A stretch of 64,000 nt of DNA, from IMG/VR virus record IMGVR_UViG_3300044733_004754. One strand, given 5' to 3'. Position 1 is the first letter of the stretch. Each line of letters starts with the position of its first letter. The notes under the pieces were generated by a model. That model was given only the letters and a program-made list of their open reading frames with translations. It searched no databases and was not told where the DNA came from. Shown in pieces: positions 2 through 44,919 of this stretch. Made by a program: the position numbers and the translations under genes. Origin of the DNA: a virus.

Positions 2-220
2 GTTAAGTCCCTAAAAGATTTTCAACGAGATGTAGAGAGATTAGCTTTTGAAAAACGTATCGATTTCATGGAAGCCGTCCTGCTTTATTGTGAGCAGACA
101 GGTATGGAAATTGAGACAGCTGGTAGTTTGATTAAGTCGAGTGCAAAAATGAAAGCTCGGATTCAAGATGAAGCCGAGGCACTCAACTACTTCCCTAAAA
201 CAACAAAGCTGCCTTTGTGA
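2..220 (+). CDS. gp33: Late transcription co-activator gp33 (5'-truncated by window edge)
   Basis: Hand translation of frame 2: ...FQRDVERLAFEKRIDFMEAVLLYCEQTGMEIETAGSLIKSSAKMKARIQDEAEALNYFPKTTKLPL*. This is a typical gp33 C-terminus and lies directly upstream of gp59-gp32. Confidence 0.85.
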   Translation, partial: VKSLKDFQRDVERLAFEKRIDFMEAVLLYCEQTGMEIETAGSLIKSSAKMKARIQDEAEALNYFPKTTKLPL

Positions 221-822
221 TGTTTGCGCTACGGATGGACGCGTTCGAAGCATATAAACGCTACCTTGCTCTGAAAAGTCATTTTACCACCGATCGGTAT
301 GACTTCTTCAAGTACAACGGTGCAGTGAAGGCTCAACGTGATAAGTTTGAAACACGTAACGACAAGTACTTTTTTCATAAACTATCAAAACACAAAGATC
401 TAACTAACTTTTTAGTAGCTTTGTTTGTTTATGGTAAACATGATATGTGGATTGGTGATGTCCTTCGTAATGAAGAATCTGATAAGATGTATCGTGAGTG
501 GTTACGTGTGAAGGAATCATTGACATATGTTTTTAAAAATGATATTGAGAAGTTTAATGAGGATCTTATAAGCAGTTTTGTGGTGACCGATGGTCAACAT
601 CCCCACGCTCTTAAACTTTTACTGCGAAAAGAAATTCACATTGAAACATTTATTATTATGAACGACATCCTTAGGTTCAGTCCTATGTGGAACCGCGAGA
701 TTAAAGAACAGGCTGTGTGGCCTGATGTGAGGAAGAAGTGTAAGAAGTATTTTCCTTTCATGCAATATGACAAAGACCAACTCAAAAAAGTTGTTGTTGA
801 CCGTTTTAATGTTAGTCTGTAA
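220..822 (+). CDS. gp59: Helicase loader gp59
   Basis: AYKRYLALKSHFTTDRYDFFKYNG...FETRNDKYFF motif; gp33-gp59-gp32 synteny. Start is at 220 (TGATG overlap) or 235. Confidence 0.88.
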   Translation: MFALRMDAFEAYKRYLALKSHFTTDRYDFFKYNGAVKAQRDKFETRNDKYFFHKLSKHKDLTNFLVALFVYGKHDMWIGDVLRNEESDKMYREWLRVKESLTYVFKNDIEKFNEDLISSFVVTDGQHPHALKLLLRKEIHIETFIIMNDILRFSPMWNREIKEQAVWPDVRKKCKKYFPFMQYDKDQLKKVVVDRFNVSL

Positions 823-894
823 GATAAATATCTGTATCGTTATGATACTGTGGACACGCAAATACAAATCACACTTTTATACAAGGAAATACAC

Positions 895-1803
895 ATGACA
901 ATCGATTTCAAAGCCCTCAAAAAAGCTAGCGCCACCTCTCTGCAAACGGCTCAGAGCGCTGTTGAAAAGCTAGCAACTCCCTCAACCAAGCCTCAAGACG
1001 ACGATCGTTTTTGGCGACCCACTGTGGACAAAGCTGGTAATGGTTACGCTGTTATTCGTTTCCTTCCTGCGCCTGCTGGTGAGGACGTTCCGTTTGTTCG
1101 ACTGTTCGATCACGCGTTCCAAGGTCCTGGTGGTTGGTTGATTGATGGGTGTCTCACCACCATTAACGAGAAATGCCCAGTGTGCGAGCACAATAGTGCT
1201 TTGTGGGCAACTGGTTCGAAAGAGAACCAAGACTCTGTACGTAAACAGAAGCGCAAGTTGTCCTTTATCAGCAACATCTATGTTGTGAAAGATCCTTCCA
1301 ATCCCGAAAACGAAGGGCGTGTCTTCTTGTTTAAGTATGGCAAGAAGATCTTTGATAAACTTAATGCAGCAATGAATCCTGAATTTGAGGATGAAGATTC
1401 AGTTAATCCGTTTGATTTCTGGACGGGTGCTAACTTCAAGCTCAAAATTCGTAAAGTTGAAGGCTATCAGAATTACGACAAGTCTGAGTTTGATACTCCG
1501 GAGCCTCTTTTGTCTGATGATGATGAGCTCGAGGCTATTTGGAAGCGTGAATACTCTTTGCAGCCGTTCCTGGATAAGTCAAACTATAAGTCGTATGACG
1601 ATATCAAGAATCGTCTGAATAAAGTATTGTCGCTTGCTATGGCACCTGCAGCTAAGTCTAATGCTTTTGAAGATGAAGCACCTGTTATGCGTGCAGCAGC
1701 TCCGAAACCTGCTCCTACGAAAGCTCCGAAGGCGGACTTGCCATGGGACGAACAGGAAGATGAAGACATGCTCCTATTCCAGAAGCTGGCTAGTGACGAC
1801 TAA
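895..1803 (+). CDS. gp32: Single-stranded DNA-binding protein gp32
   Basis: DDRFWRP..DKAGNGYAVIRFLPAP, CPVCE, FKYGKKIFDK and NYDKSEF motifs; acidic C-terminal tail; AAGGA RBS before ATG 895. Confidence 0.95.
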   Translation: MTIDFKALKKASATSLQTAQSAVEKLATPSTKPQDDDRFWRPTVDKAGNGYAVIRFLPAPAGEDVPFVRLFDHAFQGPGGWLIDGCLTTINEKCPVCEHNSALWATGSKENQDSVRKQKRKLSFISNIYVVKDPSNPENEGRVFLFKYGKKIFDKLNAAMNPEFEDEDSVNPFDFWTGANFKLKIRKVEGYQNYDKSEFDTPEPLLSDDDELEAIWKREYSLQPFLDKSNYKSYDDIKNRLNKVLSLAMAPAAKSNAFEDEAPVMRAAAPKPAPTKAPKADLPWDEQEDEDMLLFQKLASDD

Positions 1804-13038: not shown

Positions 13039-13039
13039 A

Positions 13040-13468
13040 ATGGCACTGGTTACAAGAGTAAAAACATCAACACCTGTCCGCCGAAAGCAAGAACTTTATT
13101 CTGATTTTTTTACTGACCTGCTTAGTTTAGATGTAACGCGTGATATCGCTAAGGCTATGAATGAAGACGCTGTTAAGCAGTCGATTCGTAATCTCCTACT
13201 CACAAACAGAGGCGATCGATTGTTTAATAACACGCTAGGAAGCGACATATACTCATTACTGTTTGAGAACAGTAGCCCAGCTTTGGAGCAAACACTATCC
13301 GATTACATTAAGACAACAATAGAAAATTATGAACCACGTGCAGAATTAATCGATGTAGTTGTAGATAGCGAGGCGGATGAACATGAAGTGTTGGTTGTCA
13401 TAAATTTTCGTGTTCTAAATAAGACTGAACCTGTTTCTCTCGAGCTAGTTTTAAATAGGATCCGATAA
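13040..13468 (+). CDS. gp25: Baseplate wedge subunit gp25
   Basis: YSD, NE.AVKQSIRNLLLTN.GDR.F...GS.I..LLFE and I..YEPR motifs. Confidence 0.92.
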   Translation: MALVTRVKTSTPVRRKQELYSDFFTDLLSLDVTRDIAKAMNEDAVKQSIRNLLLTNRGDRLFNNTLGSDIYSLLFENSSPALEQTLSDYIKTTIENYEPRAELIDVVVDSEADEHEVLVVINFRVLNKTEPVSLELVLNRIR

Positions 13469-29043: not shown

Positions 29044-29273
29044 AATATCGTCCAGATACAAGCGACTCTAATTATATTCGAGATCCTCTGTCCAAAGCTG
29101 TTCTAAATATTGATATGGCAGGATATGAACGGTTCAAAACGGAACGAGACTTCATACTAAGGCAGCAACAACTTGAAAATAGTGTGCATGATCTTAAAAA
29201 AGATTTGAATGAATTTAAAGACTTAATTAAACAGTTAATTAACGGAAACACAAATGGCAAGACCAATAGCTAA
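29040..29273 (+). CDS. Small coiled-coil hypothetical protein following the VrlC-like genes
   Basis: YIRD..SKAVLN.D...Y...K then coiled coil; overlaps both neighbours. Confidence 0.6.
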   Translation: MKYRPDTSDSNYIRDPLSKAVLNIDMAGYERFKTERDFILRQQQLENSVHDLKKDLNEFKDLIKQLINGNTNGKTNS

Positions 29274-31326
29274 TGTTGTTATATCTACGGATTCATTTGC
29301 AACGTGGATTGGTATTACTAATCGGATAGCGGACACTATTACGACGCAGGCCTTAACAGCAAACAACACCGCTAATGGGGCTAATGTTTCTGGTAATTCA
29401 CAACTAATAGGTATTTTTGCTGCAAACACTATAGCTGCTGGTACAACCCTACGTGGTGGTACAGTTAACGCATCGGCTAATTTAAATCTAACATCAAATG
29501 CTTACTTTACAGGAAGTAATACGGCATTTGCTAGTAACGTTGCCGTTTACAATTCGACAGGATATTTTTACTCAAATACTCAAACGTTTTACATAGCTGG
29601 TACATTTGCCAATGTAACCGCAAATAGCTACTTTAATTCTAACTTCTTTATTGCTAACACGGTCATAAACCGTATACAAGGTGGTGGGTTTCAAGTAACC
29701 TCAAACACGTTACTTTCTTCAGCCAACGTATTTGTTAACGCAGCAGCAACCACCATACAAAACGGTCAAGCAACAATAACATCTAACGTCTCTATTGAGA
29801 ATGCAAATACCAATATTAATGCAACAGCTTTTGGTGTTCAAGGTGTTAGCACTATAACAGGTAATACTACATTAAAAGGCAATACATCTACTAATAGTAT
29901 TCAGCTCACTGGCAATTCGACTGTAACCGCTTTGACGGTAAGTGTCAACAGCACTTCTGTTGCAGGTAATTTGGCTGTGACAAATGCTACTTCGTTATCC
30001 AATACGTTATCTGTTACTGGCAACACAACGATATCAAATACATTAGCTGTTACTGGTAATGTGACGTTTTCTAATACATTATTTGTTGTTGGTGCAGCTA
30101 CACTATCAAATACATTAGCCGTGACAAATGCAGTAACTTTGTCGAACACGTTGTTGACGGTAGGTAATGTAACGTTTTCGAATACATTAGCTGTAACCGG
30201 TGCTGTCACAATGTCTAATACGCTAGCCGTGACAAATGCAGCTACGTTTTCAAATACAATATCCGTTACTGGTAATGCTACTTTTTCAAACACAATATCT
30301 GTTACGGGCGCTGCAACACTTTCAAATACACTGGCAGTGACAAATGCGGCAACATTATCTAACACACTGTCTGTTACTGGTAATGCTACGTTCTCAAACA
30401 CAATAGCTGTTACAGGTAATGTAACGTTTTCAAACACGCTAGTCGTAACTGGTGCTGTAACGTTATCAAATACATTAGCTGTAACTGGTACTGGGACGGT
30501 GAATGGTGCATTCACGGTTAACAATACAGCTTCTGTAGGCAACACAACGATAACAGGATTCGTTAACGTATCATCAACAGCAAATGTTGGTGGTAATGTA
30601 AATTTAAGAGGTACCCTCACTGTTAATGGTGCTGTGACAGTACCTAATACATTAGCTGTAGGAAATACTAGTGTTACTGGTTTTGTGTCTGTGACGCAGA
30701 CATTGGGTGTAACTAACGCTGCTACTTTCTCCAACACACTAGCGGTCACGGGTAACGTAACGTTTTCTAATACGTTAGCGGTTACAGGTGCAACGACTTT
30801 ATCTAATACGTTAGCTGTTACAGGTAATGCGACGTTCTCAAATACAATAGCTGTCACTGGTAACGCAACATTCTCAAATACGATATCTGTAGCCGGTAAT
30901 ACTACGCTATCAAATACACTAGCCGTAACAGGTGCTACGACTCTATCGAACACACTCAGTGTTGCTGGTAATACAACACTCCAAACAGATCTTGAATTGT
31001 GCGTTGTATCGACTACACTTAATACAGTCACTGTAACTCCACAAGATGTATTGGTGTTAACAAAGCCTGTGGGATATAGAGCTGCAAAAATAACTGCAGC
31101 AGTGACGAGTCAAAGCGGTGCCAATGTATCAACACAGGAAATGATCCTTGCACATTCAGCTTCTGCTAATGATGTAACATTAACAATTTATGGTACAGTA
31201 GCTGCTCCAGCAACATCTAATCTGGGTAGTTTTTCTGCCGCTATAAATACAACAGCACTGGCACTAAAGTTTCATCAAACAGGTGCTAGTTCGCTTGTAA
31301 AAATGTTCATTCAGTTTATCAAATAA
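29254..31326 (+). CDS. Tail fibre-like protein with 12-aa SNTLAVTGNATF repeats
   Basis: DSF.TW...TN N-terminal motif; more than 20 tandem 12-aa units. Confidence 0.65.
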   Translation: MARPIANVVISTDSFATWIGITNRIADTITTQALTANNTANGANVSGNSQLIGIFAANTIAAGTTLRGGTVNASANLNLTSNAYFTGSNTAFASNVAVYNSTGYFYSNTQTFYIAGTFANVTANSYFNSNFFIANTVINRIQGGGFQVTSNTLLSSANVFVNAAATTIQNGQATITSNVSIENANTNINATAFGVQGVSTITGNTTLKGNTSTNSIQLTGNSTVTALTVSVNSTSVAGNLAVTNATSLSNTLSVTGNTTISNTLAVTGNVTFSNTLFVVGAATLSNTLAVTNAVTLSNTLLTVGNVTFSNTLAVTGAVTMSNTLAVTNAATFSNTISVTGNATFSNTISVTGAATLSNTLAVTNAATLSNTLSVTGNATFSNTIAVTGNVTFSNTLVVTGAVTLSNTLAVTGTGTVNGAFTVNNTASVGNTTITGFVNVSSTANVGGNVNLRGTLTVNGAVTVPNTLAVGNTSVTGFVSVTQTLGVTNAATFSNTLAVTGNVTFSNTLAVTGATTLSNTLAVTGNATFSNTIAVTGNATFSNTISVAGNTTLSNTLAVTGATTLSNTLSVAGNTTLQTDLELCVVSTTLNTVTVTPQDVLVLTKPVGYRAAKITAAVTSQSGANVSTQEMILAHSASANDVTLTIYGTVAAPATSNLGSFSAAINTTALALKFHQTGASSLVKMFIQFIK
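29960..30980 (+). repeat. 36-bp coding tandem repeat (SNTL[AS]VTG[NA][AV]T[FL])
   Basis: Periodic translation with degenerate DNA copies. Confidence 0.85.
31242..31249 (+). promoter_or_regulatory. Possible late promoter TATAAATA inside the 690-aa gene
   Basis: Exact consensus about 85 nt upstream of the 31335 ORF; intragenic, so it may be chance. Confidence 0.45.
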
Positions 31327-31334
31327 GGTAAGTA

Positions 31335-33128
31335 ATGGCTGATACGTCAAGCAATGTTCAATTCAAGGTTGAAAATGGTCTCCTTGTTTTAGGTACCGCA
31401 AATGTTGCTGGACCAGCAGTGTTCAATGCCAACGTTGACATTAACGGGTCATATCTTTCTGTTACGGCAAATCTTCAAAGTAGCCTGGTTCCATTAAATA
31501 ACACCTATTCACTTGGTAACGCAACATCGCGCTGGGCGTTGAGCGCAATGGGCGGTAGTTTTGTTGACAGTGTTTCAGTTACTAACACCTTATCAACAGG
31601 TAATACAACAATAACCGGTTTCGTCAACGTATCATCCACAGCAAATATTGGTGGTGCAGCGACATTGAGAGGCACGCTAACGGTAAATGGTGCTGTAACT
31701 ATTGCCAATACTCTAGCTACAGGTAATACATCCATAACAGGTACACTGGCTGCTAATAATACAACTATAACAGGGTTTGTTAATGTATCATCAACAGCAA
31801 ATATCGGTGGTGCCACGTCGTTAAGAAGTACGTTGGTTGTAAACGGTGCTGTAACTATTGCCAATACTCTAGCTACAGGTAATACATCCATAACAGGGTT
31901 TGCAACAGTATCCACAACCCTTACTGTTACAGGAGCGACAACACTTTCCAATACTCTTTCTGTAACAGGAAACACCACTCTTTCGAACACGCTAGCTGTT
32001 ACTGGTAATACATCTCTCTCTAATAGTTTAATCGTAACTGGTAATACGACCTTATCAAATACACTGGCTGTAACTGGTAACGTCGTTCTATCGAACACAT
32101 TAGCTGTAACTGGTAATGTGACGTTTTCTAATACGTTAGCGGTTACAGGTAATACCACTTTTTCAAACACTATTAATATTGCCGGTATCACAACCTTACG
32201 TAGCGCTGCCAATGTAGTTGGAGCAGCTGCAGCCTTCAATGCATTGACGGGTGTTGCAAACACGACGGAGTTCATCACCACAACGGCAGCACATGGCTTT
32301 AGTAATGGTGATCTGGTTCAGTACATTGTATCGACTGGTAATACAGCTGTAACAGGTCTTGCAAATGGAACAAGTTACTACGTGGTTGAGGCGAATTCAA
32401 CTGCATTCAAGTTATCCTCGTCGTATGGTGGATCAGTCATAAATCTAACCGCCAGTGTTAGTGAAGTTGGACATACTCTTACACCCCAACGAATTGTTCT
32501 ATCAACGAATGGTAATATTGATAGTTCGTTAGGATTAGCTAACGTTGGCTCTTTACGTGTATTAGGGACCGCTGTTGTAAACGGTGCAGTAACGCTAGCT
32601 AGTACGTTAGGTGTTACTGGAGCAGCAACATTTTCAAACACAATATCCGTAACAGGTAATGCGACCCTGTCAAACACGCTTGCTGTTACTGGTGCAACGA
32701 CACTATCAAATACACTTGTTGTTTCGGGTAACGCAACATTTGACACAGATTTGCTTTTCATTGATGCAGTAAACAACAGAATTGGATTCAAGAACACATC
32801 ACCAAGCTCAACCGATCTAATAACTATATCAGGTAATACTGTACTTACTGGTTTAAGTGCAGCTATTCGTTTCCTATCGTCAAACGCAACACATAATGCG
32901 TCTATTACAATAGCCGGTAACACAACAAATACACGTACGACGTTTACTACATACGAAGCGAACGCAACAGCAAGTGATGGTGGTTTTATTTTCCAGGCAG
33001 CAAACGGAACAACAACCACATCTGTTCTAGCTTTTAATCAAACTGAGCTAAAGTATAAAACTGGTAATGTTGCACATGCAGGAAATTTTGGGATTTACGA
33101 TGTAAGCGGTACGCGGCTAGGACCATGA
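31335..33128 (+). CDS. Tail fibre-like protein with 12-aa repeats and one gp7-type repeat domain
   Basis: FKVENGL N-terminus, VP..NTYSLG..T.RW, SNTLAVTGN repeats, HGFSNGDLVQY...YYVV domain and FID..NNRIG. Confidence 0.65.
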   Translation: MADTSSNVQFKVENGLLVLGTANVAGPAVFNANVDINGSYLSVTANLQSSLVPLNNTYSLGNATSRWALSAMGGSFVDSVSVTNTLSTGNTTITGFVNVSSTANIGGAATLRGTLTVNGAVTIANTLATGNTSITGTLAANNTTITGFVNVSSTANIGGATSLRSTLVVNGAVTIANTLATGNTSITGFATVSTTLTVTGATTLSNTLSVTGNTTLSNTLAVTGNTSLSNSLIVTGNTTLSNTLAVTGNVVLSNTLAVTGNVTFSNTLAVTGNTTFSNTINIAGITTLRSAANVVGAAAAFNALTGVANTTEFITTTAAHGFSNGDLVQYIVSTGNTAVTGLANGTSYYVVEANSTAFKLSSSYGGSVINLTASVSEVGHTLTPQRIVLSTNGNIDSSLGLANVGSLRVLGTAVVNGAVTLASTLGVTGAATFSNTISVTGNATLSNTLAVTGATTLSNTLVVSGNATFDTDLLFIDAVNNRIGFKNTSPSSTDLITISGNTVLTGLSAAIRFLSSNATHNASITIAGNTTNTRTTFTTYEANATASDGGFIFQAANGTTTTSVLAFNQTELKYKTGNVAHAGNFGIYDVSGTRLGP

Positions 33129-33129
33129 A

Positions 33130-36100
33130 ATGGCAAGACCACTTAGAGCAAGATATGTTACAGCAAGTACAAGTGACGGTGTTCAGGAGATGTCGGATAG
33201 CGACATCAATGACCTTGTTATTCCTAGGATAACCAACTTATTTTACGCTGCATCAAATACATCTGGCTACGGTAACAAACTCGAACTAAGAACTACACCA
33301 CCAACTTGGAATTATGTTACTGGTGGGACTGTTCTTGATGTGTTTCCAACAGCTTTACCGCCCATCGGGACACATCCAGTAACTTCTTCGTCAACAACAT
33401 ACACGTTGTACCAAAATCTTGACACTGCATTGACAACAAACTTTGATCTTATAACCAAACCTGTTAAAACAGAGGCAAGTGGTGGTGTTCAAAAGATTCA
33501 ACAGTTTTCAAACAATGAAATCAGAGATGATATTCATAGTAAAGTTATTGCTGAAATATCTGTTGGGGCACAAGGAGCTTACTGGCTTGGAACTTCACCA
33601 CCAGGAACAGGTACGTGGATTGTTGTATCCTCAATAAACGATACTTTTGTTAACTCGACAAGCAATAGCACGCAAACAACCACATATAATTTGTATCAGC
33701 GCTCTACGAATAGTGGGTATGGTACAAAGAGGCCTTTAAAAGGTACAGCGAACGCTCTTACAGAGATGTCCGATGCTGAAATTGACACAATGACAGCGGC
33801 TATACGTGATTGTATTGCGGCTGGTATTGGTAGATATCAAATATCGACTACATCACCAACGCCTGGTACTTGGGTAGCTCGTGGTTCTTTCACAGATACA
33901 CAGAATGGTATAGAGGATCAATCATATTCCGGTAGTTACTTGGGTACTTTTACAGGTGCGTTCAGTGGCATTTATAATCAAGCATTCACAGGAGCTTATC
34001 AGGGACAGTTTAATCGGGCATTTACAGGTAACTTTATTGATACTTCTAAATTTACTGGTGCATTTGCAGGTGTGTATCAGCAAAATTTTACAGGTATCTA
34101 TTCACGTATTTTTACTCGTGATACAAACACCTCGTTTACGGGTGTTTATCAGAACACATATACAGGTAATTACACAGGTTTATTTGCGGGTGCATACTCA
34201 CAGGTATTCTCCGGTGGATATTTGGGAAGTTATCAAGGCTCTACTTTTACTGGCGGCTTCAACCAGACTTTTGCTGGTACGTATGTGGGAACATTTACAG
34301 GACCATATTCAGGAAATTTCCAGGGCGTAACATATTCAGGCGGATTCAATCAAAATTTTACTGGCGTATATGTAGGGGCGTTTTCAAGACCATATGCTGG
34401 GAACTTCCAAGGTATAACATATTCGGGTGGATATAATCAGACTTTTGCCGGTACGTATGTGGGAACATTCACGGGACCATATTCTGGTTCTTATCAGGGT
34501 ACAATATATCCTGGTGGGTATAATCAGACGTTTGCTGGAACATACAATCAAACGTTTACAGCTCAATACTCAGGGGATTTCCAGGGCGTAACATATTCAG
34601 GCGGTTACAATCAGACTTTCATAGGTGTATACGCAGGATCATTTTCAAGACCATATGCTGGGAATTTTCAAGGTATAACATATTCAGGTAGCTACAATCA
34701 AACCTTTGCCGGTACGTATAATCAAAGTTTTACCGGTGGATTTGTAAATAATTATGCCGGGACCTACTCACAGGCGTTCAGTGCCACGTACGCTGGTGGA
34801 TATGTTGGGGACTTTTCAAGAGCATATACAGGTTCATATCAGAACACATATTCAGGGGCATATGCAAATACGTGGTCTCGAATATTTTCAAGAGCGTGGA
34901 CGGGATCCTATACTGCTGCATATACGGGCGATTATACTGGTGCATATACGAAGGCCTTTGCGCGACTTTTCACAGGAACATATACAGGCGCTTGGATTGG
35001 TAACTACACACGTGGCTTTGTAGGCCTATATGGTTCAACATTCTCAAGAGGCTTCTCCTCCTTTTTCGTGGCCGCGTACACTTCAACGTATGCAGGAACT
35101 TATACAGGTAACTACACACGAGCTTTCACACCATCGTTTCAAGGATCGTATGCACTTCCTTCTGTAGGCTCCTACGATGGGGATTACATAGCAGGTGGAT
35201 TTACTGGGCCTTTCAACATCACGTATTATACAGGTACATATCAGGGCACATATAACAGCTTTTTCACGGGTACGTATGAAGGTGCTTTCTCACGTATATT
35301 TGCCGGTAGTTATGCTGGTACATACCAAGACCCCTATACAATAACATCATTTACGGGGCCATTTGCTGGTACAGGTTATTTTACAGGATCGTACGTTGGC
35401 AATTACCAAGGTAATTTTGGCGCTAGTTATCAAACGACATTCCAGGGATTTTATTCGGGTTTATATACGCAGGCCTTTTTGAGAGCGTGGACGAACGTAT
35501 TTGTATCAAGCTGGACATCACTGTATGCTGGTACATACTCAAGAGCATTTACAGGTGAATATCTCCAAAACTACATTGGATCGTATGAAGGAACATTCAG
35601 TAGAGAGTTCTCAGCCCCATATCAGGGATCATATGAGAATAGTTGGTCAAGAATATTTACTGGTGATTGGACGGGGGGTTTTAGTACTAATTACACTGGT
35701 GGGTATGTTAATTTTTGGACAGGGTCTTACACGAGTACATATTCCAGGGTTTTTTCGGGAGCTTATACTGGTGTAATTACATACACGGGTGGGTTTGTTG
35801 GGTTATATGCAAATACGTGGGCAGGCAGTTACACAGGACAATTTACTGGTGGCTATACTAGGGCGTTCACGGGTGACTATACGGCTACTTGGTCAGGATC
35901 CTATACCGGTGCGTACTCACAAAACTTTACCGGTTCGTATACAGGGACCTTTACTGGTGGATATACGGCTACGTGGACCGGTACCTACTCAAGAGTATTC
36001 ACAGGACAGTTTACAGGCGGATATACCGCGGTATTTACTGGTGCTTATACATCAACCTGGACAGGTTCATATGTAGGTTCATACTCACAAAACTTTTCTG

Positions 36101-36678
36101 GTAACTATGTAGGAACATTTACGGGTGCGTATACATCCACTTGGACAGGTTCTTACACCGGATCGTATTCACAAAACTTTACTGGTATATACACAGGCAC
36201 GTTCACAGGGGCATACACGGCTACGTGGACGGGTGTATATTCTGGTGCGTATTCACGAAATTTTACAGGCGCATATACGGGTACATTCAGCGGCAACTAC
36301 ACAGCTACCTTTGCTGGGACGTACACGGGCGGTTATACACGAGCATTTTCTGGTACATACGCTGGTAACTACACGGGCGGGTTTATTGGTCAGTGGACAG
36401 GAGTATACAGCCGTATATTCACTGGTTTATATACCGGCGCGTTCACAGGCGTTTTTATTGGTAACTTTACAGGTAGTTATGTTGGGACATATTCACGTAT
36501 ATTTACGGGTGCATATACTGGTTTGTTCACTGGCTCATATTCTGGAGCATATACGGGTGCTTTCAGTGGTAACTATGCTAATAATTTTACACGATTATTT
36601 ACAGGGGCATACTCGGGTCTAACCGTCACCGGTACAACGACGACGACTACATATACATTATGGGTTAGAACAGCTTGA
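33130..36678 (+). CDS. YTG-repeat filament/fibre protein A (1182 aa)
   Basis: Three ~95-aa N-terminal repeats (RPL...QEMS..[DE]I...GTW), about 900 aa of [YFW]-x-G-x repeats, C-terminus TLWVRTA. Confidence 0.7.
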   Translation: MARPLRARYVTASTSDGVQEMSDSDINDLVIPRITNLFYAASNTSGYGNKLELRTTPPTWNYVTGGTVLDVFPTALPPIGTHPVTSSSTTYTLYQNLDTALTTNFDLITKPVKTEASGGVQKIQQFSNNEIRDDIHSKVIAEISVGAQGAYWLGTSPPGTGTWIVVSSINDTFVNSTSNSTQTTTYNLYQRSTNSGYGTKRPLKGTANALTEMSDAEIDTMTAAIRDCIAAGIGRYQISTTSPTPGTWVARGSFTDTQNGIEDQSYSGSYLGTFTGAFSGIYNQAFTGAYQGQFNRAFTGNFIDTSKFTGAFAGVYQQNFTGIYSRIFTRDTNTSFTGVYQNTYTGNYTGLFAGAYSQVFSGGYLGSYQGSTFTGGFNQTFAGTYVGTFTGPYSGNFQGVTYSGGFNQNFTGVYVGAFSRPYAGNFQGITYSGGYNQTFAGTYVGTFTGPYSGSYQGTIYPGGYNQTFAGTYNQTFTAQYSGDFQGVTYSGGYNQTFIGVYAGSFSRPYAGNFQGITYSGSYNQTFAGTYNQSFTGGFVNNYAGTYSQAFSATYAGGYVGDFSRAYTGSYQNTYSGAYANTWSRIFSRAWTGSYTAAYTGDYTGAYTKAFARLFTGTYTGAWIGNYTRGFVGLYGSTFSRGFSSFFVAAYTSTYAGTYTGNYTRAFTPSFQGSYALPSVGSYDGDYIAGGFTGPFNITYYTGTYQGTYNSFFTGTYEGAFSRIFAGSYAGTYQDPYTITSFTGPFAGTGYFTGSYVGNYQGNFGASYQTTFQGFYSGLYTQAFLRAWTNVFVSSWTSLYAGTYSRAFTGEYLQNYIGSYEGTFSREFSAPYQGSYENSWSRIFTGDWTGGFSTNYTGGYVNFWTGSYTSTYSRVFSGAYTGVITYTGGFVGLYANTWAGSYTGQFTGGYTRAFTGDYTATWSGSYTGAYSQNFTGSYTGTFTGGYTATWTGTYSRVFTGQFTGGYTAVFTGAYTSTWTGSYVGSYSQNFSGNYVGTFTGAYTSTWTGSYTGSYSQNFTGIYTGTFTGAYTATWTGVYSGAYSRNFTGAYTGTFSGNYTATFAGTYTGGYTRAFSGTYAGNYTGGFIGQWTGVYSRIFTGLYTGAFTGVFIGNFTGSYVGTYSRIFTGAYTGLFTGSYSGAYTGAFSGNYANNFTRLFTGAYSGLTVTGTTTTTTYTLWVRTA
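33920..36615 (+). repeat. Coding tetrapeptide tract with 87-bp x6 (34234-34755) and 84-bp x6 (35878-36381) super-repeats
   Basis: Gln codons at 34234, 34321, 34408, 34495, 34582, 34669; Trp codons at 35890, 35974, 36058, 36142, 36226. Confidence 0.9.
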
Positions 36679-36684
36679 GAAAAA

Positions 36685-39600
36685 ATGCCACTTCGTCCGT
36701 TATACTATAATACATCGTTATCCGGATTACAGGAGATGTCCAATACGGACATCGATGGATATATTTCAAATGTAATAGGTTCTGATTTTGCTTCGACAGA
36801 AGATATTGGATCTCTCATCGTGCAGGATCCAGGTGATCCGGTTCCTGCAAATTCTACCTCCATTGGTACATGGGTTGATACACGCTACGATCAACAAATA
36901 GGTGACCATCCTGTTTCAGAAGCGAATCTTGTTTATTCAAACACAACCATTTATCAAAGATTGGGTGGTGGACCATTAACGGACCCTTCAATGGTACGAC
37001 CTATTTGCTGGAATGATACGCTTGATGGCGTACAGCAAATGGCGAATACGGATATTGACACAACCATTATTGCGAAGGCCGTTTCTTATATTGTCAATGG
37101 TGGTGTCGGTTCATATGTCCTGCAGCCGTCTGCACCAGTAACTGGTACGTGGGTTGTGAGAGGGCGATTGCAGAATACTGAACGTCCATACTTTGCCAAT
37201 GAAACATTTCTCTGGCAAAAAACGTCTGAAAGTCCAAGCGGCTCTATAAAGCCTTTGAAATGGAGTACTAATGCTTTACGTGAGATGTCAAATAACGACA
37301 TCAAAACCTTGACACATAGAGCAAGAAATTACATCGCCAATACAGGTATAGGCACCTATCAATTATCCACAACCACCCCGTCATCAGGCGGAACGTGGGT
37401 TGAGGCGGGTACGGGATTCAATGATACCCGTCAAGAAATAAGACCTCAAACTTATAATGCTCAAGTGTATACAGCAACTTTTTCTGGTGTATATACACGG
37501 GCTTTTGTTGGCAAGTATCAAGGTAGTTTTACTGGTTTGTATGGGATACCATACACACGTGAATTCACAGGTACATTCGCAGATACGTTTACCGGGGCTT
37601 TCAATCAGCAATTCACCGGAGCTTTTTCTAGCGGATATGCAACAACGTACACGGGTACGTTTAATCAGCAGTTCACTGGACAATTCACTGGCGCTTATAC
37701 TGGTGGTTATACAGGAACATTTACCGGTGCTTACACGGGCGGATATACAGGTGCATTCACTGGTGTATATTCGGCGCCTTATGTGGGTAGCTTCACTGGT
37801 GTATATGTAGGGACGTTTAATCAGCAGTTTACTGGCGCGTTCAGTGGTGTTTATCTAGGGACATATCAACAAAATTTCACTGGTGATTATGTTGGTGGCT
37901 TTACAGGTGCATTCAGCGGTGCTTATGCTCAAGCATTTACGGGTGCATATAGTTCAATCTTTACAGCAGCATATAGCGGTTCGTTTACAGGCCAGTTTTC
38001 GGGTTTATACACAGGCGCTTTCACGGGTGTATATGTAGGAAGTTACGTGGGGAAATTCACAGGCGCATATACGGCTATCTATAGTAGATTGTTTACAGGG
38101 GACTACACAGGTATTTATACTGGTGCATATAGTCAGAACTTCACCGGTGCCTTTACTGGTCAATTCAATCAAGTGTTTACAGGTACGTTCGCTGGTGGTT
38201 ATGCAGGAACGTTTAACCAAGTATTTACGGGCACATTTGCAGGTACTTACAGTAGCCTGTTCTCTGCAATATACACAGGCAACTACACTGGTATATACAG
38301 CCAAGCGTTTACAGGTGCATTCACGGGTATTTTTAATCAGGCTTTCACAGGTAACTTTGTTGGTAATTATGTTGGTAACTATCAGCAAACATTTACGGGA
38401 GCTTTTGCAGGAACATACAGCAGTTTATTCACGGGAAGCTACACAGGTAACTACACAGGATTATATAACCAAGTATTTACAGGAACGTTTGCTGGAACAT
38501 ATAGCCAAGTATTTTCGGGTAGCTATACCGGTAATTACACGGGATTATATAACCAAGTTTTTACAGGTACTTTTGCGGGAACATATAGTAGATTATTCAC
38601 AGGAAGCTATACAGGCAATTACACAGGCATATACAATCAAATATTCACAGGTACCTTCGCAGGCACTTACAGTAGATTATTCACGGGAAGCTATACAGGT
38701 AATTACACTGGCATATACAATCAAGTATTTACAGGTGCGTTTGTAGGAAATTATGCCGGGTCGTTTACTGGTTCGTTTGCTGGTGGATACACAGGTGCTT
38801 TTTCCGGTTCATACACAGGCGCTTACACAGGAATTTATGCAGGTTCATATGTAGGAAATTACCAGGGAAACTTTACTGGTTCATTTGCAGGAACATATAG
38901 TAGATTATTTATAGGTTCGTATTCGGGTGGGTACACACGTGCATTCACAGGAGCTTACACAGGAATTTATTCGGGCGGGTACGTAGGCTCCTTCACGGGT
39001 TTGTACTCCGGTGGGTATGTAGGTTCTTTCACAGGTATTTACTCAGGCGGATACACGAGAGCTTTCTCGGGATCATACACTGGATCATATACTGGAACAT
39101 ACGCCGGAACGTACACAGGTTTGTATTCAGGTGGGTATGTCGGATCGTTTACGGGCATATACTCAGGCGGATACACGAGGGCTTTCTCGGGATCATACAC
39201 TGGATCATATACTGGAACATACGCCGGAACGTATACAGGCATATATGCTGGTGGATATGTGGGGTATTTTACGGGCATATACTCAGGCGGATACACGAGA
39301 GCTTTCTCGGGATCATACACTGGATCATATACTGGAACATACGTAGGAACGTATACAGGCATATATGCTGGTGGGTATGTGGGGTATTTTACTGGAATAT
39401 ACTCTGGTGGGTATACAAGAGCTTTCTCAGGATCATATACTGGATCATATACTGGAACATACGCCGGAACGTATACGGGTTTGTATTCAGGTGGTTATGT
39501 CGGATACTTTACAGGCATATATTCAGGTGGTTATGTTGGATACTTTACAGGAATATATGGTGGCACGTACAGTAGGTTATTCACAGGTGCCTACGCGGGT

Positions 39601-42600
39601 GGATATATTGGGTACTTCACAGGAATATATGGCGGTACGTATAGTAGATTATTCACAGGCGCCTACGCGGGTGGGTATGTTGGTTACTTTACAGGAATAT
39701 ATGGTGGTACATATAGTAGATTATTTACAGGTACATACTCTGGAAGTTATCAAGGCAATTTCACGGGGCTCTATTCAGGTACATATAGTAGATTATTTAC
39801 TGGCAGCTATACAGGATTATATTCCGGAAACTTTCAGGGTAACTTTACAGGTGCTTTTGCTGGTACGTATAGTCGATTGTTTACGGGTTTATATACAGGA
39901 TCATACTCTCGTGGGTTCACGCGGGTCTTCATCGGGACTTATCAAAGAGGGTTCATAGGGTCATATGCAGGTAGCTTCAATAATACATTCACACCAACAT
40001 TTGCTGGAGCTTACGCTCGGGCCTTTATTGGAGTTTATGCAGGATCGTACCAAAACCCATTCACTGGAATATATTTCACTGGTTATTACACTGGTTTTTA
40101 CATTAATTTTTTTACAGGAACTTATCAGGGAGCGTTCACGCGTTTGTTCACAGGGGCATATACAGGCGTTTATCAAGATCCTTACGTCATTTTAACTTTT
40201 ACGGGGCCATTTGCTGGTCCAGGTTTTTTCGCGGGTACCTATGGGGGTTCTTATGTAGGTGTGTTTGGCGCCTCATATAGTAGGCTATTTACAGGCTTTT
40301 ATTCAGGATCATATACTGGTGATTTTACGGGAGCGTTTGCTCGGGTGTTCACAGCAACATGGACAGGGTCCTATGCAGGATCTTATCAAGGCAACTTTAC
40401 AGGAAGTTTTGCGGGTACGTATAGTAGATTGTTTACTGGGCAGTATTCTGGCGCTTATGCAGGATCCTATCAGGGTAACTTCACAGGTACTTTTGCTGGT
40501 ACGTATAGTAGATTATTTACGGGTACGTACTCGGGCAACTACCAAGGCAACTTCTCCGGGATATATGCAGGATCATATGCACAGACGTTTACTGGAATAT
40601 ACTCCGGCAATTACCAAGGCAACTTTTCCGGAACATATGCGGGTGCATATGCACAGACTTTCACAGGAATATATTCCGGCAATTATCAAGGCAACTTCTC
40701 AGGAACATATGCAGGAGCATATGCACAAACATTTACAGGTGCATATGCAGGGGCATATGCTCAAACATTTACAGGTACTTACGCAGGCGGATATACAGGC
40801 TATTATTCTGGCGCCTATGCTGGTACATATTCGGGTGCATTCAATCAAACATTTACAGGTGCATATGCAGGGGCATATGCTCAAACATTTACAGGTACTT
40901 ACGCAGGCGGATATACAGGCTATTATTCTGGGGCATATGCTGGAACGTATTCGGGCTCATTTAACCAGACATTTACGGGTGCATTTGCAGGGGCATATGC
41001 TCAAACATTTACAGGTACTTACGCAGGCGGATATACAGGCTATTATTCTGGCGCTTATGCTGGTACATACTCAGGAGCATTTAACCAGACATTTACAGGT
41101 GCATTCGCCGGTGTATATCAACAAACCTTTACGGGTACGTATTCAGGTGGATATATTGGATACTATTCTGGCGCTTATGCTGGTACATACTCAGGAGCAT
41201 TTAACCAGACATTTACAGGTGCATTCGCTGGTGTATATCAACAAACATTTACCGGTTCTTACTCGGGTACATATCAGCAAACGTTTACAGGTGGGTATGC
41301 AGGGACATATTCAGGGTCTTATAATCAGACATTTACAGGCGCTTTTTTAGGTAGTTATGAAAGTTCTTTCACTGGATTTTATTCAGGTGCCTATAGTAGA
41401 TTATTCACTGGTAGCTACACAGGTGCGTATACTGGAATATATGTGGGTTCCTATGTTGGTACATTTAATCAAACATTTACGGGTAGTTTTGCAGGCACAT
41501 ATTCAAGAGTATTTTCGGGATTATATTCCGGTGGCTACACGGGTGCATTTACTGGAATATATGCCGGTGCTTATGTTGGCAACTTCCAAGGCAATTTCAC
41601 AGGTAACTACTCTGGTGGCTACACAGGTGCATTTACTGGAATATATGCTGGTGCTTATGTTGGCAACTTCCAAGGCAACTTCACAGGAAATTATTCAGGT
41701 GGATATACAGGAACATTTTCGGGAATATATGCTGGTAGTTATGTAGGAGGGTATCAGGGCAACTTCACAGGAAATTATTCAGGCGGATATACCGGCACAT
41801 TTACTGGTGTATATGCAGGCGCTTATGTTGGAAGCTATCAAGGGAATTTCACTGGAAGTTTTATTGGTGGCTACACACGTGTGTTCTCGGGCACATATTC
41901 CGGTGTATATACGGGTGTTTACACAGGTCAATTTACAGGGATATACTCAACGTTATTTACAGGTGCATTCAGTGGGATATACGCAGGCGGATATGGTGGG
42001 AGTTTTCTAGGAAACTTCTCAGGGCTGTATTCGGGCGGATACACAGGAGCGTTTACAGGTATTTACACAGGTATCTACACAGGTGGGTATACTGGCACCT
42101 TTACTGGAGCATACTCAACACAGTTTACAGGTACATTTACAGGTGGATATGCAGGCACGTATGCCGGTGCCTACCAAGGCAACTTCACAGGCGTGTTCCA
42201 AGGTACGTACCAACAATCATTTACAGGTAATTACACCGGCATATACAGCCAAGCATTTAGTGGTACATATAACCAAGCATTCACAAGAAACTTTACTTTT
42301 GATTATACCGGTACGTTTTCGGGACCATATGTAGGATTTTTCACTGGAAGTTATTCACAAGTCTTCAGTAGATTTTTTACAGGATCATATACGGGTCAGT
42401 TCACAGGCGCTTATTCGGGCATATACAGTCAAGCCTTTACAGGTGCGTTCTCTGGCAATTATACAGGTATCTACAGTCAAGCATTCACAGGTGCTTACAC
42501 GGGTATATTCAATCAAACATTCACTGGCGATTTCGTAGGAAAATTTAATCAAACCTTCAGCGGTATTTTCATTGGTTCCTATAATCAACAATTCACTGGT

Positions 42601-43113
42601 GCTTTTAGTGGTGGGTATACGGCGGTGTATACTGGCGCTTACAGTCAAGCCTTTACTGGTACATTCAGCGGCATTTATACTGGTCAGTTTTCTGGTGCGT
42701 ACACGGGAGCATTTGGTTCATTGTTTACAGGAGTATACAGCCGTATATTCACTGGATCTTATTCGAGCGCATTCACAGGCCAGTTTAACCAATCGCCTGT
42801 TTACACGAGCGTGTATTCAAGACCATATGCTGGCGTGTATGGTCAGACGTTTAGTAGTACGACATATCCAGGTGCGTTTTATGCACAAGCGTTTACAGGA
42901 GAGTACACAGGATCGTATACAGGAACCTCTATCTTTGGGTTCACAAGTAGTTTTTCTAAAGCATTTACTAGTTTGTTAGGTTCTTTTTCATCGTTATTTA
43001 CAGGACTATATACTAACATAACAGGGCAATATCTAGCAGCTTGGTCGGGGTTGACAATAATGTCAACGCCGGAAACAATTCAAACACTTAAACTTTGGGT
43101 ACGAACAGCATGA
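36685..43113 (+). CDS. YTG-repeat filament/fibre protein B (2142 aa), paralogue of A
   Basis: Same three N-terminal repeats, about 1860 aa of tetrapeptide repeats, C-terminus KLWVRTA. Confidence 0.7.
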   Translation: MPLRPLYYNTSLSGLQEMSNTDIDGYISNVIGSDFASTEDIGSLIVQDPGDPVPANSTSIGTWVDTRYDQQIGDHPVSEANLVYSNTTIYQRLGGGPLTDPSMVRPICWNDTLDGVQQMANTDIDTTIIAKAVSYIVNGGVGSYVLQPSAPVTGTWVVRGRLQNTERPYFANETFLWQKTSESPSGSIKPLKWSTNALREMSNNDIKTLTHRARNYIANTGIGTYQLSTTTPSSGGTWVEAGTGFNDTRQEIRPQTYNAQVYTATFSGVYTRAFVGKYQGSFTGLYGIPYTREFTGTFADTFTGAFNQQFTGAFSSGYATTYTGTFNQQFTGQFTGAYTGGYTGTFTGAYTGGYTGAFTGVYSAPYVGSFTGVYVGTFNQQFTGAFSGVYLGTYQQNFTGDYVGGFTGAFSGAYAQAFTGAYSSIFTAAYSGSFTGQFSGLYTGAFTGVYVGSYVGKFTGAYTAIYSRLFTGDYTGIYTGAYSQNFTGAFTGQFNQVFTGTFAGGYAGTFNQVFTGTFAGTYSSLFSAIYTGNYTGIYSQAFTGAFTGIFNQAFTGNFVGNYVGNYQQTFTGAFAGTYSSLFTGSYTGNYTGLYNQVFTGTFAGTYSQVFSGSYTGNYTGLYNQVFTGTFAGTYSRLFTGSYTGNYTGIYNQIFTGTFAGTYSRLFTGSYTGNYTGIYNQVFTGAFVGNYAGSFTGSFAGGYTGAFSGSYTGAYTGIYAGSYVGNYQGNFTGSFAGTYSRLFIGSYSGGYTRAFTGAYTGIYSGGYVGSFTGLYSGGYVGSFTGIYSGGYTRAFSGSYTGSYTGTYAGTYTGLYSGGYVGSFTGIYSGGYTRAFSGSYTGSYTGTYAGTYTGIYAGGYVGYFTGIYSGGYTRAFSGSYTGSYTGTYVGTYTGIYAGGYVGYFTGIYSGGYTRAFSGSYTGSYTGTYAGTYTGLYSGGYVGYFTGIYSGGYVGYFTGIYGGTYSRLFTGAYAGGYIGYFTGIYGGTYSRLFTGAYAGGYVGYFTGIYGGTYSRLFTGTYSGSYQGNFTGLYSGTYSRLFTGSYTGLYSGNFQGNFTGAFAGTYSRLFTGLYTGSYSRGFTRVFIGTYQRGFIGSYAGSFNNTFTPTFAGAYARAFIGVYAGSYQNPFTGIYFTGYYTGFYINFFTGTYQGAFTRLFTGAYTGVYQDPYVILTFTGPFAGPGFFAGTYGGSYVGVFGASYSRLFTGFYSGSYTGDFTGAFARVFTATWTGSYAGSYQGNFTGSFAGTYSRLFTGQYSGAYAGSYQGNFTGTFAGTYSRLFTGTYSGNYQGNFSGIYAGSYAQTFTGIYSGNYQGNFSGTYAGAYAQTFTGIYSGNYQGNFSGTYAGAYAQTFTGAYAGAYAQTFTGTYAGGYTGYYSGAYAGTYSGAFNQTFTGAYAGAYAQTFTGTYAGGYTGYYSGAYAGTYSGSFNQTFTGAFAGAYAQTFTGTYAGGYTGYYSGAYAGTYSGAFNQTFTGAFAGVYQQTFTGTYSGGYIGYYSGAYAGTYSGAFNQTFTGAFAGVYQQTFTGSYSGTYQQTFTGGYAGTYSGSYNQTFTGAFLGSYESSFTGFYSGAYSRLFTGSYTGAYTGIYVGSYVGTFNQTFTGSFAGTYSRVFSGLYSGGYTGAFTGIYAGAYVGNFQGNFTGNYSGGYTGAFTGIYAGAYVGNFQGNFTGNYSGGYTGTFSGIYAGSYVGGYQGNFTGNYSGGYTGTFTGVYAGAYVGSYQGNFTGSFIGGYTRVFSGTYSGVYTGVYTGQFTGIYSTLFTGAFSGIYAGGYGGSFLGNFSGLYSGGYTGAFTGIYTGIYTGGYTGTFTGAYSTQFTGTFTGGYAGTYAGAYQGNFTGVFQGTYQQSFTGNYTGIYSQAFSGTYNQAFTRNFTFDYTGTFSGPYVGFFTGSYSQVFSRFFTGSYTGQFTGAYSGIYSQAFTGAFSGNYTGIYSQAFTGAYTGIFNQTFTGDFVGKFNQTFSGIFIGSYNQQFTGAFSGGYTAVYTGAYSQAFTGTFSGIYTGQFSGAYTGAFGSLFTGVYSRIFTGSYSSAFTGQFNQSPVYTSVYSRPYAGVYGQTFSSTTYPGAFYAQAFTGEYTGSYTGTSIFGFTSSFSKAFTSLLGSFSSLFTGLYTNITGQYLAAWSGLTIMSTPETIQTLKLWVRTA
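37450..43050 (+). repeat. Coding tetrapeptide tract with 84/120/72-bp then 72/120/84-bp super-repeat blocks
   Basis: 120-bp units start at 39061, 39181, 39301, 39421 and at 40741, 40861, 40981, 41101. 72-bp units start at 39541, 39613, 39685 and at 40531, 40603, 40675. 84-bp units start at 38461, 38545, 38629 and at 41521, 41605, 41689, 41773. Confidence 0.9.
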
Positions 43114-43555: not shown

Positions 43556-44290
43556 ATGAATATTCGTAATGGTTTTTTAATTGTTGCATCACAACTCAAA
43601 GAGTATCTAGATTCGGCAAATTATCTGGCGAGTAGTATAAAAGACTACTATCCCGAAGCACACATCACTCTTTTTGTAACTCCAAAGCTAGAGCAATATG
43701 CTGACCGCAGTGCCTTTGATCTAGTTATATCTGAGGATGTTCCGAACCATGTGCGTACAAAGTTGTACGCTCTCTCCAGAACACCATACACTGAGCTTAC
43801 TGTTTATGTTGATGCAGATATGGAGTGCATGCACTCTGATGTCTCGAATATTTGGGATGAAATGCCTGAGGATTGTGACCTCCTGATTACAAAAATACGT
43901 CCCTATAACGGTAAAGAGGATCGTTGGCCGGGAGGTGCGACGATACCTCAAGGCCGTATGATATATCATGGTGGTTTTTTTATGTACAGATCAAACCCAC
44001 AAACACTTGAGTTTATGCGTAGGTGGTGGGAGGATTATAAATTACAAAGAAGTGAACCATGGCCTTATCCTGAAGAAGAGTGTAGGAAGTCCTTTGCTCA
44101 ATGGGATCAATTTACTTTTTGGAAACTTTTAGCTGTTGACAAGCTAGATGTTAAGGTAGGTGTTTTTGATGATGATGCAAGATGGAATTTTGTAAATGGT
44201 TATTATCCAAAAGAAGCCAAAAAAGAGATCGTTTTTTGGCACCACACTATTCCTTCTAAGCACGAAAATATAGGGATCAAAGCTAAATGA
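43556..44290 (+). CDS. Putative GT-A fold glycosyltransferase
   Basis: A..SIK...P...ITLF, K..AL..TPY...VYVDAD (DxD), Y.GGFFMY and WDQF motifs. Confidence 0.65.
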   Translation: MNIRNGFLIVASQLKEYLDSANYLASSIKDYYPEAHITLFVTPKLEQYADRSAFDLVISEDVPNHVRTKLYALSRTPYTELTVYVDADMECMHSDVSNIWDEMPEDCDLLITKIRPYNGKEDRWPGGATIPQGRMIYHGGFFMYRSNPQTLEFMRRWWEDYKLQRSEPWPYPEEECRKSFAQWDQFTFWKLLAVDKLDVKVGVFDDDARWNFVNGYYPKEAKKEIVFWHHTIPSKHENIGIKAK

Positions 44291-44919
44291 AAGAAATTCA
44301 AATAAACAATAAAGAACTTAAACAAATTTTAAATGATTGGTTAGAGGTTCTTTTGAGAGCAGATCGTTCGAAATATCCCTATCAAGCAGGCGTGGGTAAA
44401 ACTGGATTAGTGACTCCAGAGTATGCATGTAGTATGGAATACTTGCAACACATGCAAAGTAAAAAAGTAGACGGATTCCCAGAAACAACACATGGTGTTG
44501 ATCTAATGAGGTTTCGACCACCACACCAATCCCTTGCCGACGCTTTGGTAAAGCTAGACTACGATCTACTCAATTGGTCTGGATCGCGCAACAATGCGGT
44601 TAAGATGCTCTATCCTAAAGGCGGGTATATGGGCTGGCATCATAATGCAAACGCGCCCGGTTATAACATTCTTTTATCATGGTCTGAAAAAGGTACAGGT
44701 TTCTTTCGTTACCAAGATCCAATAACAAAAGAGATTGTCACGATGCAGGACACGCCTGGGTGGACGTGTAAAGTTGGATATTATGGACCATGGCATGAGC
44801 CGGATCGAATCTACTGGCACTGCGCAAGCGCACATGAAGAAGAGCGGGTAACGCTAGGGTATATCATTCCTCATGAAGGGATGTGGAATAATATGTGCGA
44901 TGATATTCAGTCAGCGTAA
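44287..44919 (+). CDS. Putative cupin / 2OG-Fe(II) oxygenase-like protein
   Basis: YP.GGYMGWHHN...YWHC....R.TLGY jelly-roll pattern; Asn at the usual HxD acidic position. Confidence 0.5.
   Translation: MKEIQINNKELKQILNDWLEVLLRADRSKYPYQAGVGKTGLVTPEYACSMEYLQHMQSKKVDGFPETTHGVDLMRFRPPHQSLADALVKLDYDLLNWSGSRNNAVKMLYPKGGYMGWHHNANAPGYNILLSWSEKGTGFFRYQDPITKEIVTMQDTPGWTCKVGYYGPWHEPDRIYWHCASAHEEERVTLGYIIPHEGMWNNMCDDIQSA

Follow-up and report, generated by a model that had tools for sequence, protein, structure and literature searches.

Two described systems come closest to the arrangement reported here. In the long-tail-fibre needle of phage T4, which is formed by gp37 (PDB 2XGF), the chains run to the distal tip and return, which puts the tip that binds the receptor in the middle of the sequence. 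PMC6957217 mentions this needle together with its iron sites. In the MABP β-prism of MPEG1, one hairpin, which bears the binding tip, is 'extraordinary elongated' (PMC6753088). Here we describe two paralogous proteins, P0001 and P0002, that resemble each of these systems in part and are encoded next to each other in a 64,000-nucleotide stretch of viral DNA (IMG/VR record IMGVR_UViG_3300044733_004754; hereafter the window). In the list of open reading frames (ORFs) and their translations, the gene of the shorter paralogue, P0001, occupies 33130..36678 (1182 amino acids, aa) and that of the longer paralogue, P0002, occupies 36685..43113 (2142 aa) and starts 6 nucleotides (nt) past the P0001 stop. 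Both genes and all other features given below lie on the plus strand. Each protein contains a tract built of [YFW]-[TSA]-[G/R/Q]-x tetrapeptides. It is very likely that blade 3 of a prism-like base takes up this tract at the tip of its last hairpin, that a C-terminal peptide closes this blade, and that the chain runs out and back in between.

The likeness to the T4 needle is that of a phage fibre with an out-and-back chain, although the path of the chain in P0001 and P0002 is a predicted one. The gp37 needle is a homotrimer of intertwined chains that His-x-His iron sites hold together, whereas no His, Cys, or HxH motif is present in the tract of either P0001 or P0002. The two proteins also differ from gp37 in the strict period of 4, in the β-prism that would close both ends, and in arms that are ~5-10 times longer. 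Pentapeptide-repeat proteins, collagen-like phage fibres, and the adenovirus triple β-spiral are similar in that they are elongated and contain long low-complexity periodic tracts that change length by tandem duplication. However, such short-period fibres and solenoids have a period of 5, 3, or 15, whereas the tract repeats every 4 residues, the first being aromatic and the third Gly. Furthermore, none of them shows mirror-ordered super-repeats or a tract that starts and finishes in a single hairpin of a globular domain. The tracts do not have the period of five that defines pentapeptide repeats, and no Pfam family was found for P0001 or P0002 at E<=0.01. A literature search found no description of such an architecture.

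Both proteins begin with three copies of an ~85-100-aa unit. In P0001, unit 1 (aa 1-108) is encoded by 33130..33453, unit 2 (aa 109-199) by 33454..33726, and the N-terminal part of unit 3 (aa 200-262), which lacks the last strand, by 33727..33915. The three units of P0002 (aa 1-103, 104-187, and 188-252) are encoded by 36685..37440. The bases of the two proteins are 37% identical. The units have in common an [RK]P[LVI] motif, a ..QEMS..[DE]I.. helix, an IG.Y strand, a P..GTW motif, and a D/N-T pair. Units 1 and 2 close with a strand of the T.Y.L[YW]Q[RKN] type, namely TTYTLYQN and TTYNLYQR in P0001 and NTTIYQR and ETFLWQK in P0002. Unit 3 breaks off after GTW..F.DT in both proteins. The strand missing from it aligns with the extreme C-termini, TTYTLWVRTA in P0001 and QTLKLWVRTA in P0002, which lie ~900 aa and ~1870 aa beyond unit 3. 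The C-terminal stem together with this last strand is encoded by 36604..36675 in P0001 (aa 1159-1182, ..SGLTV..TYTLWVRTA) and by 43039..43110 in P0002 (aa 2119-2142, ..SGLTI..QTLKLWVRTA).

A preliminary description of the locus had proposed both the three opening repeats and the displacement of the last strand of the third copy to the extreme C-terminus, and profile comparisons bore out the two proposals. The program hhalign was run on unit sub-alignments that were cut from a 45-sequence family alignment. Unit 1 matched unit 2 at E 1.6e-16, unit 2 matched unit 3 at E 2.1e-24, and unit 1 matched unit 3 at E 1e-14. The match of unit 3 to the unit-2 profile, which is 89 positions long, was confined to positions 1-67, and the C-terminal profile matched positions 69-83 of it (15 columns, pairwise P 0.002, probability 13.6%). 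Therefore, the two pieces tile one full unit with no overlap. Further evidence came from a position-specific scoring matrix (PSSM) that was made from the last strand of unit 2 and scanned across all residues after unit 3. The C-terminus scored 17.9 bits in P0001 and 11.4 bits in P0002, as opposed to -0.1 and 0.2 bits at the next-best sites. Only these two margins are counted, because the family-wide figure of the scan (124 of 126) is partly circular: the complete proteins had been picked by a C-terminal pattern.

The C-terminal peptide was also placed in the base by structure prediction. AlphaFold2 was run on P0045, a homologue of 329 aa, with a 67-sequence alignment. The model had a mean predicted local distance difference test (pLDDT) score of 87.6 and a predicted template modelling (pTM) score of 0.80, and the base and residues 310-329 reached pLDDT 94-98. 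Each unit was predicted to fold as strand-strand-helix-strand-strand-strand (E-E-H-E-E-E). In unit 3, a long strand (231-247) exits the base, residues 250-294 have pLDDT <50, and a second long strand (301-327) returns. When the model was compared with the ESM Atlas, three clusters of viral hypothetical proteins superposed over residues 1-329 with TM-scores of 0.68-0.75.

AlphaFold2 was also run on full-length P0001 with a 45-sequence alignment. The pLDDT was 84-97 for aa 1-270, 25-60 for the tract, and 90, 97, and 87 along aa 1161-1182. In other words, the base and the C-terminal strand were both confident despite the ~900 low-confidence residues between them. Blade 1 was predicted to consist of E5-9, E15-20, H23-43, E51-54, E62-73, and E86-96, and blade 2 of E111-117, E120-125, H128-144, E151-154, E163-174, and E181-191. 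Unit 3 consisted of E203-205, E210-212, H215-230, E236-239, and E248-274, the last of which (β4) continues into the tract, and the C-terminal strand was E1153-1180. In blades 1 and 2, the short hairpins E62-73/E86-96 and E163-174/E181-191 take the place of strands E248-274 and E1153-1180. A complex prediction for P0001 aa 1-275 with aa 1146-1182 scored 0.87, compared to 0.70 for an unrelated-peptide control, and was counted neither way.

What do the three units form together? A VIA-align search was made against 48,161 chains. Four MABP-type prism domains came out on top for the P0045 model, and the first chain outside this protein group had Z<=3.1. The best match was Mpf2Ba1 (8b6v_A; Z 7.5, root-mean-square deviation (rmsd) 3.9, 118 residues aligned, model 35..329), followed by Plu-MACPF (2qp2_A; Z 7.0), the MVB12B MABP domain (3tow_A; Z 5.7), and the P2 domain of perforin-2 (6sb1_A; Z 5.6). 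The P0001 model matched 8b6v_A with Z 7.6 (125 aligned, model 47..1182) and 3tow_A with Z 6.8 (model 46..1182). The prism alignments as a whole had Z 5.6-7.6, rmsd 3.7-5.7, and 109-125 aligned residues, and they covered all three units and the last residue. Because they do so, the units look like blades of one prism that is closed C-terminally.

The base, as modelled, thus resembles a pseudo-threefold MABP-like β-prism, which is a resemblance and not membership. Like the MABP prisms of MPEG1/perforin-2, Plu-MACPF, Mpf2Ba1, and MVB12B, which are its best structural matches, the base would be compact and roughly threefold symmetric. However, it has no sequence similarity to them. There was no Pfam family, the family profile found no relative among PDB sequences, and Foldseek was silent (no match against PDB or BFVD at E<=0.001). 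Furthermore, the blades of ~85-100 aa contain an extra α-helix and are recognisable as sequence repeats, and the hairpin insert is up to 1865 aa long here (a 3347-aa member also exists), compared to a few tens of residues in MABP prisms. The setting differs as well, being a phage tail module here and a pore-forming toxin or ESCRT (endosomal sorting complex required for transport) for the MABP relatives. By analogy, the elongated MPEG1 hairpin may serve as a small-scale precedent for the long insert. The preliminary description had spoken of separate base domains with the tract inserted in the third. The three units and the insertion stand, with two refinements: the units look like three blades of one pseudo-threefold β-prism, and the insert emerges from the tip of the hairpin β4-β5, the last one of blade 3.

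In the same search, a part of unit 2 of P0045 (aa 122-166, β3-β5) matched phage T4 gp11 (1el6_A; Z 2.3, 45 aligned, 24% identity) and a baseplate-cup chain of Klebsiella phage KP1 (9f4b; Z 2.0). Both are baseplate proteins, and both matches are too weak for interpretation.

Covariation connects the two ends of the insert. For 125 complete family members, an alignment was made of the unit-3 segment plus the 34 C-terminal residues, and mutual information was calculated with average product correction. Of the nine highest-scoring pairs of variable columns, five, including the first three, fell on one anti-diagonal that joins aa 250-273 with aa 1176-1156. In P0001 numbering, these pairs are 250-1176, 259-1170, 260-1171, 262-1167, and 273-1156, and the sum of their positions is 1426-1431. 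This agrees with the strand ends in the AlphaFold2 model, which pair 248 with 1180 and 274 with 1153. The hypergeometric p was 2e-5 to 2e-6 for a band that was picked post hoc. The covarying columns form an antiparallel ladder between the outgoing and the C-terminal strands. Taken with the pLDDT of 90-98 and the prism alignments that reach the last residue, the covariation supports the earlier proposal that the N- and C-termini fold into one base.

The lengths of the insert in the family are a further source of evidence. A profile of the two bases was searched against 1.84 billion representatives and found 348 clusters at E<=1e-3, 57 of them at E<=1e-30, with lengths from ~150 to 2142 aa. The C-terminus ..G.T[VI]..L[WYF]x[RK]xx was present in 128 of 156 sequences, and the remaining ones, which stop inside the base or the tract, look truncated. 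In P0001 and P0002, the motif G.T[VI]..(8-12 aa)..L[WY]x[RK]xx stands directly before the stop codon, as does the C-terminal motif in the ORFs of viral contigs. The search for homologues with short inserts, which the preliminary description had called for, was successful. Natural proteins of this kind, P0060 (291 aa), P0085 (287 aa), and P0061 and P0077 (296 aa each), keep the C-terminal strand, and they stood in for a tract-deleted construct. For the shortest complete members, such as P0060, P0085, P0063, P0061, and P0077, the insert is estimated at ~5-20 aa; it measures 40-130 aa in many others, 895 aa in P0001, and 1865 aa in P0002, forming a continuous length series. Even in the shortest members, the blade-3 hairpin is ~18-28 aa longer than the blade-2 hairpin, indicating that an elongated stem is universal in the family.

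Close relatives of the two proteins are present on L001 (10001-13141, 1046 aa; 13148-19417, 2089 aa) and L002 (10001-12862, 953 aa; 12869-18259, 1796 aa). Their bases are 98% and 75% identical to the P0001 base, and in whole-protein alignments the tracts of the two L001 proteins share 62% and 76.5% identity with their window counterparts, so the tract evolves much faster than the base. Paired insertions and deletions were sought between P0001 and its L001 orthologue, but at 62% tract identity the alignment is ambiguous and nothing was readable. Queries taken from the window itself matched nothing in a phage collection by blastn or tblastn. The sole match, a weak one, came with P0045 as query and led to the Kyanoviridae phage C48C1. 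This member is a 'hypothetical protein' of 3347 aa (OQ984149.1 141011-151054; L023 1-10044) that contains the three units, ends in ..TYTLYVRVA, and comes after genes annotated 'tail fiber protein' and 'tail assembly chaperone'. Its tract has Arg-rich variants (YSRxRxS) and, at ~aa 1800-3200, several non-repetitive proline-containing stretches that may be globular domains embedded in the tract.

How would the chain travel between the two ends of the insert? The P0001 tract is encoded by 33916..36603 (aa 263-1158) and the P0002 tract by 37441..43038 (aa 253-2118). Position 3 of the tetrapeptide is mostly G and less often R or Q, and there are almost no charged residues. The spacing from one aromatic residue to the next is exactly 4 in 90% of cases, and the autocorrelation peaks only at lags 4, 8, and 12. 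Near the middle, each tract contains an irregular element that is a candidate turn or tip. It is encoded by 35209..35529 in P0001 (aa ~694-800, with QDPY at 733 and FTGPFAG) and by 40051..40377 in P0002 (aa ~1123-1231, with QNPF at 1123, QDPY at 1164, and FTGPFAGPG). The element is 59% identical between P0001 and P0002 over 107 ungapped aa, a value higher than that for the base.

On either side of this element, super-repeats are arranged in mirror order. In P0002, the outgoing periods are 28/56 (~aa 570-690), 40 (765-930), and 24 (945-1025); the irregular centre follows at 1110-1210; and the returning periods are 24 (1280-1357), 40 (1361-1533), and 28/56 (1625-1810). The best mirror centre lies at aa 1149-1153, between the QNPF and QDPY motifs, with 89% agreement of the period labels. 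In P0001, 29-aa units (~390-510) stand opposite 28-aa units (~930-1070), the centre lies at 727-731, next to QDPY, and prolines are present at 694, 735, and 744. Two orthologues whose tracts differ in length behave in a similar manner: the mirror centre is at 1209-1213 and the motif at 1209 in L001_2, and the centre is at 979-983 and the motif at 1000 in L002_2. In family members whose tract contains 1-3 prolines, 25 of the 48 such residues are located at 0.4-0.6 along the tract, and P0013 has 8 + 8 proline-bearing 13-mers placed symmetrically about a central element. The tract appears to run out and back because its super-repeats are mirror-ordered and its centre carries a conserved proline-bearing element. 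The preliminary description had held that the tract is forced to go out and return; this is supported, but it holds only if the blade is closed within one chain.

The model that these results favour is as follows. Three β-β-α-β-β-β units would pack into one compact pseudo-threefold MABP-like prism, in which blades 1 and 2 would each finish with a short hairpin of two strands. The next-to-last strand of blade 3 (P0001 aa 248-274) would leave the prism and enter the [YFW]-[TSA]-G-x tract. The chain would reverse at the conserved proline-containing irregular element near mid-tract and then return, and the last ~25 residues (..SGLTV..LWVRTA) would run antiparallel to the outgoing strand, pair with it, and give blade 3 the last strand that it lacks. 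In this way, the entire tract would sit at the tip of one β-hairpin, with both ends fixed in the base and blade 3 closed within a single chain. The two arms may pair along their whole length as an aromatic-over-glycine ribbon, which could reach ~150 nm in P0001 and ~300 nm in P0002 if fully extended. The period-4 alternation of aromatic residues and glycine fits cross-strand aromatic-over-glycine pairing in an antiparallel ribbon. The base would presumably dock to the fibre or baseplate network, and the central element would be the distal, host-facing tip.

Several observations weigh against this picture. The β-prism match is middling (Z <8, rmsd ~4 Å), and Foldseek found none. The strand pairing is read from secondary structure, pLDDT, alignment ranges, and covariation. 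AlphaFold2 itself uses covariation, and the P0045 model, the P0001 model, and the covariation analysis are consequently not fully independent; nor are the orthologues independent samples. The arms of P0001 are unequal if the turn is at QDPY (~470 vs 413 aa). Virion incorporation and host binding of the two proteins are putative, and their role as virion fibres is read from gene context. An antiparallel domain-swapped dimer would also give mirror symmetry and covariation. Finally, P0001 aa 790-1010 was modelled at low confidence as a solenoid-like stack and not as a two-stranded ribbon.

The last of these points bears on a reading in which the ends of the tract do meet in the base but the tract folds into one or more compact β-solenoids or a multi-layer sheet, giving a shorter and thicker projection. 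In the AlphaFold2 model, P0001 aa ~790-1010 (window 35500-36160), a part of the return arm, consists of regular 6-residue strands at steps that alternate between 8 and 12, and VIA-align matched this region to leucine-rich repeat (LRR) and right-handed β-helix proteins with Z 7-9.6. However, the pLDDT of the region is only 45-63, the rmsd of the matches is 5-7 Å, and the 20-residue step of the model disagrees with the 28-aa super-repeat in the sequence there. A solenoid also gives no reason for the mirror-ordered periods or for the conserved midpoint element, and the period-4 aromatic/glycine alternation suits an antiparallel ribbon from what is generally known of β-sheets. We regard the solenoid as unlikely.

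A second reading keeps the extended tracts but lets the C-terminal strand complete blade 3 of another chain, which would produce an antiparallel swapped dimer or head-to-tail polymers. Mirror-ordered super-repeats and covariation between β4 and β5 are equally expected from an antiparallel homodimer, and an exposed edge strand in blade 3 would be open to pairing with a second chain. The family argues otherwise, because members with inserts of ~5-20 aa retain the stem and the last strand, for which a tight intrachain hairpin is the simplest reading. In the monomer AlphaFold2 models, moreover, the blade is closed by its own chain at pLDDT 90-98, and the conserved proline-bearing irregular element sits at the centre of the tract, as a turn would. 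A swap is, on this evidence, quite improbable. That the C-terminal peptide is an independent docking, assembly, or chaperone signal which resembles a strand by coincidence, with unit 3 being self-sufficient, would fit the common use of conserved C-terminal peptides for assembly in phage fibres and the shortness of the lone C-terminal hhalign match, but it is hardly credible given the tiling of the unit-2 profile without overlap, the PSSM margin of 11-18 bits, the confident placement of the peptide beside the unit-3 strand in two different proteins, the prism alignments that take in the last residue, and the covariation ladder that joins both segments.

The elongated MABP hairpin and the T4 gp37 needle are partial precedents of the proposed architecture, and the scale, the period-4 aromatic/glycine repeat, and the mirror-ordered arms appear to be undescribed. 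We propose tentatively, and with slightly less than even confidence, that a single chain forms a two-stranded antiparallel 'aromatic-over-glycine' ribbon (~150/~300 nm) that is clamped by the prism, has its tip in mid-sequence, and is tuned in length by matched duplications in the two arms, which would be an undescribed kind of filament. The idea that one polypeptide builds a β-hairpin hundreds of nanometres long, with both arms expanding together, is testable, and the natural series of insert lengths is a ready set of constructs for structural work. The family is large and unannotated: its 348 clusters have no relative in Pfam, PHROG, or PDB, and its member in the one deposited phage genome that was found to encode it is listed as a 'hypothetical protein'. 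A structural rule, in which the first ~250 and the last ~25 residues make up one domain and the part between them is a projection of variable length, would help annotators to recognise complete genes and to locate the probable host-facing tip. The same rule would place a topological constraint on any model of the tetrapeptide tract.

The window comes from a T4-like aquatic myovirus and carries its baseplate and tail-fibre module. Its terminase shares 56-58% identity with the counterparts in Methylophilales phage Melnitz, Pelagibacter phage HTVC008M, and cyanophage P-RSM6. P0001 and P0002, for which no PHROG family was found, sit within this tail/baseplate structural module. PHROG matches upstream identify gp48-, gp53-, gp5-, gp6-, gp7- (1814 aa), and gp8-like genes and then several fibre-like genes, and the large terminase and tail sheath genes lie downstream. 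From this gene context, P0001 and P0002 are putatively paralogous fibre-like structural proteins of the virion. The gene immediately upstream (31335..33128) stops 2 nt before the P0001 start and encodes a fibre-like protein of 597 aa with 'SNTLxVTGN'-type repeats and PHROG matches to structural and tail-fibre families. A fibre-like gene whose product resembles this protein occupies the same position, upstream of a family homologue, on contig L010.

Downstream of P0002, two genes (43556..44919) are also found after the homologue in L010. The first (43556-44290; 244 aa) is glycosyltransferase-like, with a weak Pfam match to Nucleotid_trans, and the second (44287-44919) encodes 210 aa. They are 42% and 34% identical, respectively, to their L010 counterparts (11802-12536 and 12517-13179). 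The two genes may have a role in modifying the Thr/Ser/Tyr-rich tract or in helping it assemble. Genes of similar size are present at the same place after the family member in L004 and in phage C48C1.

The 597-aa protein and the product of the ORF before it (29254-31326; 690 aa) match the same PHROG families. Long runs of 12-residue repeats of the 'TLSNTLAVTGN' type are visible in the 597-aa protein when it is aligned with its L010 neighbour. The two proteins are probably a second repeat-built fibre type beside the tetrapeptide-tract proteins. Within the 597-aa protein, an ~82-aa cassette domain (aa 301-382; window 32235-32480) is 61% identical to aa 14-95 of the family member P0006, where the copy is an insertion within unit 1. 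The cassette looks like a mobile module that is put into loops of different fibre proteins. A similar insertion in unit 1, judged by eye, is present in P0007-P0009.

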